Origin: Escherichia phage vB_EcoS_FP
Length of the DNA: 43,757 bases
Sequence record: MT682706.1
Strand: one strand, 5' to 3'
Shown: in pieces, positions 20 to 640 of the stretch
Numbering within the stretch: the first letter of the stretch is position 1
Layout: the number at the start of each line of letters is the position of its first letter
Program-made: the position numbers and the translations under genes
Notes under the pieces: model-generated
Databases searched by the model: none
What the model saw: the letters and a program-made list of their open reading frames with translations, nothing else
Told to the model about the DNA's origin: nothing

Positions 20-640
20 TTATGGATTGTTGCAGATATTGCAATGATTCACATGATTATTGCACATATATCAATATTGCATCAGATGCAATGATGTTTT
101 TGATTGTTGCGAAAAGTGAAATGAAGTGGGGAGTTAGTGAATGAAAGATGGATGGACTACCATACAAGTTGATTTTGATTCTTTCTGAGCTATTTTCACG
201 CATACACGTTATAAAAGTTATGCCGTGTAGATGCGCCAGCTCCCCGTGGGAATCGTGTACGTCTATCACGCTAAATTACGCAATGGTTACATAATAATAT
301 CTATACATATCAACCATTTAGTACTATTATTATTATTATTATTATATACGCGTATATAATGTATATAGTGGATATTGGATATTGCGATAGTTTTCTGTGA
401 TTTTTTCCTACACTTGTAGGAATTGGATGACACTGTAGGAATAAATAGGCATATATGGGCCAATGCTCCATGAAAGCCGGTGTACAAGCTATACGCAGTG
501 GTTACATTGAGCTATATCTGGGGTTTGGAACTGAAAAGCGTAAATAAATTGAATTCAACCATAAATAACACTTGATAACATGTAACCTCAATGATACCAT
601 GCACCCATCTTAACGAGAGAAACCAATCAGGAGTATATCT
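20..640. repeat. AT-rich non-coding control region A with ATTGCA/GATTGTTGC repeats, (ATT)n microsatellite, palindrome TTCCTACA-CT-TGTAGGAA and two TACGCNNTGGTTACAT iteron-like sites; homologous to 25345-25720
   Basis: No credible ORF over 620 bp; direct comparison with 25345-25720 shows shared blocks of about 80 bp and about 35 bp; lies between divergent early operons. Confidence 0.7.

Follow-up and report, generated by a model that had tools for sequence, protein, structure and literature searches.

The replication origins of the staphylococcal islands of the SaPI type are built around an AT-rich centre, with 6-12 iterons of five or six nucleotides divided equally between its two sides; each side has two or more, the two sides are oppositely oriented, and the iterons are bound by the winged helix of Rep, which is both initiator and self-loading helicase (PMC9371898). 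SPP1, a pac-type siphovirus of 44 kb, has two origins of like design, combining direct repeats with an unwinding element that is AT-rich (PMC6316719). For the T1-like phages, the genome papers on TLS and SU57 reported that the replication origin was not found. In the present study, we analysed the genome of Escherichia phage vB_EcoS_FP (MT682706.1; one strand of 43,757 nucleotides (nt), hereafter the window), a T1-like coliphage (Drexlerviridae, Braunvirinae) whose nearest relatives, according to megablast and the annotated relatives, are Msk/OzMSK. Two of its non-coding regions, designated A and B, resemble each other in sequence and in the arrangement of short repeats around an AT-rich core. 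We favour, without going so far as to call it probable, the reading that A and B are paralogous origin-of-replication-like elements recognised by an MCM-like protein of the phage, and that B is the constrained copy.

An earlier note on this DNA had proposed two homologous non-coding regions, each lying between divergently transcribed operons, and local alignment agreed with this proposal by giving two significant shared blocks. Within the window, blastn aligned 273-363 with 25417-25507 (82.6% over 92 nt, E 7e-20; block 1) and 478-546 with 25603-25671 (76.8% over 69 nt, E 1e-9; block 2). Both block pairs were also recovered by a repeat search (77% for block 2) and by MAFFT, and promoters face outward on both sides of A and of B. 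The left flank of A is a leftward promoter of the direct-repeat (DR) type at the window junction (43749..43757 + 1..11), and region B lies outside both of its flanking promoters. The note had also considered two copies unusual for a 44-kb genome. This view could not be maintained, as the pairing of AT cores is present in all the Braunvirinae examined and in Rogue1, PH1062, and T1. Because the pairing is family-wide and SPP1, also of 44 kb, has both oriL and oriR, the presence of two copies is not unusual enough to serve as evidence. No description of the shared blocks was found in a literature search.

The same note had described a 16-bp site with at least four direct copies. With up to two mismatches, TACGCNNTGGTTACAT has four matches in the window, all on the + strand and all in A or B (277, 492, 25421, and 25617), compared with a shuffle mean of 0.17, and none of 100 shuffles reached four. 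The copy number was thus correct; the positions given for the copies (284, 497, 25425, and 25624) were a few bases off and mostly marked TGGTTACAT. A fifth, degenerate copy (TACGCGCTGTTACGGC) lies at 25401, and the 16-mers are spaced 215 and 196 nt apart. The inverted partial copy suspected near 25360 exists at 25353/25360 (GTAACC, ATGTAAC), and further inverted copies lie at 25503 and 580. Regions A and B together contain 7 of the 13 GTTACAT and all five TATACGC found in the genome. In the 346-nt core of B, GTTAC occurs seven times, compared with 1.04 in dinucleotide shuffles (0/2000 reached seven).

The repeat unit is 9-11 nt long with a TAC/GTTAC core and forms phased arrays of three to four units; each 16-mer marks the end of a longer array. 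Function probably resides in this 9-11-nt unit in its phased arrays, not in four dispersed 16-mers. There are 13 phased TAC units in B and about eight in A (Table 1), and in A as in B the arrays on both sides converge on the AT core. Eight chains of at least three TAC at 9-11-nt spacing exist in the window, compared with 1.3 +/- 1.3 in genomes simulated by a Markov model. A and B account for five of the eight, among them the genome's sole four-TAC chain, which adjoins the AT core of B.

The AT cores have a 60-mer duplex stability of -56.1 kcal/mol in B and -56.8 kcal/mol in A, about five standard deviations below the genome mean (-80.8, standard deviation 4.9), and the next lowest value is -65.6. 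Each region has a triplet microsatellite, as previously noticed, and the two, (TAT)7 and (TTA)5, are the only trinucleotide runs of at least five units in the genome. When microsatellite length was compared across relatives, as the note had suggested, the length of (TTA)5 was identical in 8 of 10 sequences. The IHF consensus WATCAANNNNTTR with an AT-rich 5' flank has three matches in the genome, all in A or B (308, 25452, and, on the - strand, 25715); the predicted sites at 308 and 25452 are conserved in Braunvirinae.

Table 1. Positions of the features of regions A and B, their flanking promoters, the candidate protein factors, and the copies of the 21-nt repeat in the window
Feature	Position	Strand	Remarks
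Region A	12..640	.	Entire non-coding interval from the leftward DR-type promoter at the junction to the first + strand gene (641)
A, right-pointing units	258..292	+	TAC at 258, 277, 288; includes the 16-mer TACGCAATGGTTACAT at 277-292
A, block 1	263..363	+	Paralogue of 25407-25507; 78% in repeat search, about 80% identical
A, AT core	293..346	.	IHF consensus TATCAACCATTTA (308-320); (TAT)7 (325-345); the genome's second least stable 60-mer
A, left-pointing units	345..366	-	TAC (-) at 354, 363; within the palindrome ATATACGCGTATAT
A, block 2	478..546	+	Three right-pointing phased units, TAC at 483, 492, 503, the last unit in TACGCAGTGGTTACAT (492-507)
A, sigma-70 promoter with extended -10	572..600	+	TTGATA-17-TGaTACCAT; genes from 641 onward; inverted GTTACAT in spacer (580-586)
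B, leftward DR-type promoter	25277..25344	-	AATAGCACGAATAGCTAAAG, then -10-like box; drives lipoprotein and membrane-protein genes; left limit of B
Region B	25345-25739	.	Non-coding interval between the flanking promoters
B, left-pointing array	25346..25376	-	TAC (-) at 25374, 25364, 25355, 25347; includes GTAACC, ATGTAAC
B, right-pointing array	25399..25436	+	Four 10-11-nt units, TAC at 25401, 25411, 25421, 25432; last part TACGCATTGGTTACAT
B, AT core	25437..25492	.	IHF consensus TATCAACCTTTTA (25452-25464); (TTA)5 (25468-25482); least stable 60-mer of the genome
B, left-pointing pair right of AT core	25493..25511	-	TAC (-) at 25498, 25507; ATGTAAC at 25503
B, block 2	25603..25671	+	Three right-pointing units, TAC at 25608, 25617, 25628: ATACACGAT twice, then TGGTTACAT; inverted GTAAC at 25665
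B, rightward promoter of recE/erf/ssb operon	25740..25768	+	ATGACT-17-TATGAT; right limit of B
181-aa paralogue, candidate factor	1162..1707	+	Second gene downstream of A
DUF3987 protein (T1 gp9 homologue), candidate factor	40835..42451	-	In the leftward operon beginning at A
Copies of AATAGCACnnnTTGCTAAAG	1697-1721, 2213-2278, 3148-3213, 5318-5336, 14100-14165	+	
Copies of AATAGCACnnnTTGCTAAAG	27206-27230, 27788-27853, 35594-35659, 39021-39086	+	
Copies of AATAGCACnnnTTGCTAAAG	25277-25344, 32584-32623, 42477-42497, 42866-42928, 43723-43757 + 1-11	-	

The AT core of B with its arrays (~25346-25520) is nearly invariant in Braunvirinae and PH1062 (Nouzillyvirus), and largely so in Rogue1 (Rogunavirinae). 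Over a 91-nt core segment, most B copies are 93-100% identical; that of A110b, which has a 4-nt deletion, is 87-89% identical. Region A was homologous in the alignment across Braunvirinae, PH1062, and Rogue1, the A copies of different lineages are 70-76% identical, and A and B inside one genome are 70-81% identical. The two regions are therefore old paralogues, of which B is much more strongly constrained. Concerted evolution of A and B was considered and is unsupported overall, since the identity within a genome is no higher than that between lineages; a few shared derived bases were seen in Rogue1 only.

All Braunvirinae genomes examined show similarity between the AT cores of A and B (85% over 77 nt), and similarity in block 2, together with a full 16-mer in A, is limited to the Msk/PH1062 lineage. 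Despite sequence divergence, phased arrays are found at matching places in 2004V, T145P1, OzMSK, Rogue1 (A and B), and region B of T1. The right-pointing four-unit array of B is conserved in OzMSK, 2004V, T145P1, and Rogue1, and region A of 2004V has a chain of five phased TAC units. In T1, where A and B match at 74.7% over 91 nt, both regions contain tandem TTACGC(C) repeats, many GTGTAACA/TGTTACA sites, and a central TATATA tract. Seven to eight GTTAC(A) are present in the otherwise unalignable region B of T1 and of ISF002, which resembles T1. In LL5 (Tlsvirus, L016 931-1391), the interval upstream of recE has a recognisably homologous AT core flanked by TGTTC/GAACA repeats, and in Klebsiella phage K50_evo5 (L015 886-1385) the core upstream of recE is kept with TGTTT/AAACA repeats. 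The unwinding core therefore appears to be conserved and the flanking sites lineage-specific. With the core of region B as query, neither plasmids nor 5,426 E. coli genomes yielded a match, which leaves no natural mini-replicon or prophage copy among them, and a pattern scan of IMG/VR for TGGTTACATTGAGCTATA returned only Rtp.

Two phage proteins are candidate factors acting on these regions. A structure model of the DUF3987 protein predicts an MCM-like AAA+ core and a C-terminal winged helix. The 181-aa paralogue is 69% identical to it over the N-terminal 50 residues and 57% over the C-terminal lid and winged helix, and is without the ATPase core; close homologues of the 181-aa protein are widespread in metagenomic phage contigs (331 matches). 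No lambda-O-like or Rep-like initiator was seen among the phage genes, and none adjoins A or B.

The anatomy fits an origin because phased repeats converge on the least stable DNA, because this DNA is non-coding and strongly conserved, and because an MCM-like winged-helix protein is encoded. In such an element, an unstable AT tract (ATATCTATATATATCAACC.TTTA, a TTA/ATT run, and then TATATA) would lie between TAC/GTTAC arrays pointing inward. The winged helix of the MCM-like AAA+ protein (T1 gp9 family) would bind the phased units; the protein would then oligomerise on each side of the AT tract, aided in this subfamily by IHF bending, and the tract would melt. The MCM-like protein would load itself as the replicative helicase, the phage primase (31613..32566) would prime, and the host Pol III would elongate. 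B, which adjoins recE/erf/ssb, is the more likely primary origin. A, the faster-evolving copy near the probable pac, could be a second origin, as oriL and oriR are in SPP1, or a cis helper like crr of P4, and the 181-aa paralogue without the ATPase core may bind the same sites and modulate initiation. In a bolder version, which we consider distinctly unlikely, T1-like phages would use two SaPI-type origins fired by the self-loading MCM-like helicase, and the paralogue would compete for the units, thereby timing or limiting initiation or switching replication from theta to concatemer. Such a switch is the role proposed for gp38 bound at oriR in SPP1.

Among known systems, the SaPI/PICI origins (SaPI1, SaPIbov1, and SaPI5) resemble the two regions in that short repeats flank a central AT-rich region with opposite orientations on the two sides (PMC9371898). 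The short (5-6 nt) repeats, 6-12 in those origins, are represented by seven GTTAC in B and three in A. Opposed repeats, at least two per side in SaPIs, flank the AT centre as four right-pointing and two left-pointing units in B, and as three and two in A. The likeness extends to the protein, predicted in the case of the phage: an AAA+ helicase of the MCM or SF3 type carries a winged helix at its C-terminus, and a separate initiator or loader gene is lacking on both sides. In our analysis, region B, and more loosely A, has the architecture of a SaPI origin, and a protein of the matching type is encoded. The phage elements differ from those of SaPIs in the 9-11-nt phasing and the TAC/GTTAC core of their units, in being present twice per genome, and in their carrier, a virulent 44-kb phage and not a satellite.

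SPP1 offers a second likeness, as transcription signals bracket the non-coding stretch that contains one of its origins (PMC6316719). However, its initiator gp38 is a separate origin-binding protein that acts with the loader gp39 and the DnaB-type helicase gp40, oriL is inside gene 38, and SPP1 has no sequence relationship to vB_EcoS_FP. In P4, ori and crr are separated cis elements with the common short repeat TGTTCACC; both are required, and both are bound by the C-terminal domain of the primase-helicase. Annotation likens the T1 gp24-type primases to P4-like alpha proteins, but alpha is an SF3-type primase-helicase fusion, whereas the primase and the MCM-like protein of vB_EcoS_FP are separate. 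No homology was found between the P4 DNA elements and regions A and B. As a separate observation, one LL5 site on the opposite strand contains TGTTCAC, which is seven of the eight bases of TGTTCACC.

The origins of lambda and of iteron plasmids also have repeats beside an AT-rich region, and some of them use IHF. Those origins have at least four tandem repeats of 17-22 bp in one orientation and a dedicated O/Rep initiator, none of which was seen in A or B. The repeats of lambda, pSC101, P1, and R6K are thus of another kind than the 9-11-nt units in both orientations found here, and neither an adjoining O/Rep initiator gene nor the DnaA boxes that often accompany it are present. The earlier note had suggested iteron-containing origins and/or arrays for a regulator: the anatomy fits an origin better, the classical layout of 16-mer iterons has to be given up, and a regulator array stays the main rival.

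Several points weigh against reading A and B as origins. SaPI origins are located directly downstream of rep, but the MCM-like gene is ~1.3 kb from A and ~15 kb from B. Neither DnaA boxes nor a GATC cluster was found; the closest DnaA-like matches, which keep the CACA core, have mismatches at two of nine positions. The IHF consensus is absent in Rogue1, LL5, and T1. For A alone, the three GTTAC (0.84 expected; 113 of 2000 shuffles) are non-significant. In MCM/ORC proteins, winged helices frequently serve to contact other proteins and not to bind DNA at specific sequences. The recognition helix of the winged helix was compared with the type of repeat; the pattern is compatible with co-variation but confounded by phylogeny, and it was not used as evidence, since the similarity of the helicase C-termini follows phylogeny in general and so cannot count independently for a link to the repeats. 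Regulatory regions, too, typically have AT tracts and repeated protein sites between divergent promoters, and GTTACAT in the spacer of the promoter at 572-600 looks operator-like. T1-type replication could be mainly recombination-based, without a fixed origin. Finally, each mechanistic step given above is one that we infer.

Some of these points lead to the rival that we take most seriously, possible though unlikely, in which a phage or host protein that regulates the divergent promoters uses the repeats as its operators, the AT tract and the IHF site serve to bend or loop the DNA, and a common regulator explains the resemblance of A and B. IHF sites are frequent in phage promoter regions. Both regions lie between outward-facing promoters, and the promoter at 572-600, which has the second best sigma-70 score in the genome (13.0) and is conserved in the alignment of region A, has its inverted GTTACAT in an arrangement that recurs in PH1062 and T1. 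The phage also encodes possible regulators, namely a Cro-like helix-turn-helix protein (32605..33123) and the winged-helix protein without ATPase core. However, the arrays are ~100-300 nt from the flanking -10 boxes, and no good sigma-70 promoter lies within the blocks. In LL5, the gene upstream of the element has the same direction and ends in a terminator, so the element does not belong to a leftward promoter; standing behind a terminator, it is not divergent. An operator function would leave the extreme duplex instability and the constant microsatellite length unexplained, and a more plausible target of the Cro-like protein is the palindromic 21-nt DR (TAGCA-N5-TGCTA) at 15 or more promoters. 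A resemblance of GTTACAT to a half-site of E. coli GntR or TyrR was dropped, as the core differs.

The microsatellite could also be the spacer of a weak upstream promoter in block 1, with block 2 as an element of a long 5' leader, an RNA element, or a small RNA. We regard this as very unlikely. A weight-matrix scan for a sigma-70 promoter inside the shared blocks gave homologous matches (TTTAGT-17-TATTAT at 317-345 and TTTACT-18-TATATT at 25461-25490), and a spacer role would account for the conserved length of the microsatellite. However, these matches are weak (7.4 and 8.4 versus 13.0 at 572-600) and are not conserved outside the subfamily, that is, in LL5, T1, and Rogue1. At its gathering and E-value thresholds, Rfam gave no match in A or B; RNAalifold on both strands of 18 block-2 copies gave no consensus structure, so that a compensatory hairpin seen by eye in block 2 was not upheld; and no terminator is present.

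That the elements are sites of DNA packaging (pac recognition) or hot spots of RecE/Erf recombination is hardly plausible. In P1 pac, repeated hexamers lie on both sides of an IHF site, region A adjoins the conventional left end of the T1-like genomes, and B adjoins recE/erf. A zone at 28-112 contains six TTGCA/TGCAA repeats (GTTGCAGATATTGCAATGATT...ATTGCACATATATCAATATTGCATCAGATGCAATGATG...GATTGTTGCG) and is kept in all relatives, as far as T1. Position 1 of the T1 GenBank sequence, the start of a 2.8-kb terminal repeat and the left physical end, is inside the homologous zone, and 28-112 is therefore probably pac. This zone belongs to A, and B is without it; a second pac in mid-genome would conflict with the single pac series of T1 and TLS (PMC11447400). 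Finally, that the similarity is merely left over from duplication or gene conversion long ago, neutral and with no function in common, is scarcely credible: in favour of this, A copies diverge fast and the block-2 similarity is confined to one lineage, but the non-coding core of B is highly conserved among most relatives across genera, A retains phased TAC arrays despite sequence change, and the pairing persists to T1.

Taken as origin-like elements, A and B appear to be the best candidates so far for the unmapped replication origins of the T1-like phage family, in which T1 was among the founding model phages and the relatives of T1 are notorious laboratory and industrial contaminants. The analysis narrows the search to a site of ~170 bp (25346-25511), its paralogue at 258-366, and two candidate proteins, one as initiator-helicase and one as modulator. 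Should the origin reading be true, the question of where T1-like phages begin replication, left open by the TLS and SU57 genome papers, would be answered; the origin type with a self-loading MCM-like helicase would extend from staphylococcal islands to a large virulent enterobacterial phage family; and the T1-like phages would join SPP1 as a second example of a small genome with two similar origins. If the repeats are instead sites for a regulator, they would define the control regions of two early operons.

The abundant repeat of the genome is not that of A and B. It is AATAGCACnnnTTGCTAAAG, the palindrome TAGCA-N5-TGCTA with at least 15 copies, already described in T1-like phages as an intergenic direct repeat of 21 nt (aaATAGCACnnnTTGnTAAAA) without an assigned function (PMC11447400). 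Like the A/B units it is an intergenic repeat family, and copies of it flank A and B, but its sequence is different and it is promoter-associated: it always lies ~22 nt upstream of the -10-like box TATAGTTA, which is followed by the leader CATCGAAACGAAA, and its centre is ~42 nt before the expected start. Class II activator sites have this geometry, and the Cro-like protein is the obvious candidate for its binder.

The open reading frame 25337..25642 (+) across B, annotated as OzMSK_041, was rejected as a gene: variable columns are distributed 20/25/20 over codon positions 1/2/3, and the frame has in-frame stops in T145P1 and SU57 and a frameshift in A110b. The frames annotated across B in relatives (OzMSK_041 and possibly rtp46 and CEB_EC3a gp44, of which that of OzMSK_041 was assessed) are probably not genes. 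The first real gene of the recE/erf/ssb operon probably starts at ATG 25806, not at TTG 25722.

Msk/OzMSK are 88% identical to the window over its first 8 kb and 97.8% over region A, and 2725-N35 and the Veterinaerplatzvirus isolates are 83-90% identical to it (megablast). No usable transcriptome studies of Drexlerviridae turned up in the literature search. The gene order agrees with that of Rtp, OzMSK, and T1. Small genes on the + strand are followed by terminase and structural genes to ~24 kb, two - strand genes (24093-25258), and recE/erf/ssb on the + strand; then come the tail fibre, the primase, and the Cro-like regulator (-), the helicase and lysis genes (+), and a final - strand block that includes the DUF3987 'helicase'. 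The genome is circularly closed, and the copy of the 21-nt promoter-associated repeat (-) that bridges the window junction is upstream of the final - strand gene (43516..43695). The cumulative GC skew is lowest at position 12; it was rejected as an origin signal because the skew tracks gene orientation and is uninformative. Region A, but not B, also has a palindrome, TCCTACA-N3-TGTAGGA (TTCCTACA..TGTAGGAA), with a third direct copy CTGTAGGAAT (406-443), kept as far as Rogue1. A tRNA gene at 4244-4318 (+) matched Rfam RF00005 with 55 bits, and is annotated as tRNA-Arg in the relatives.

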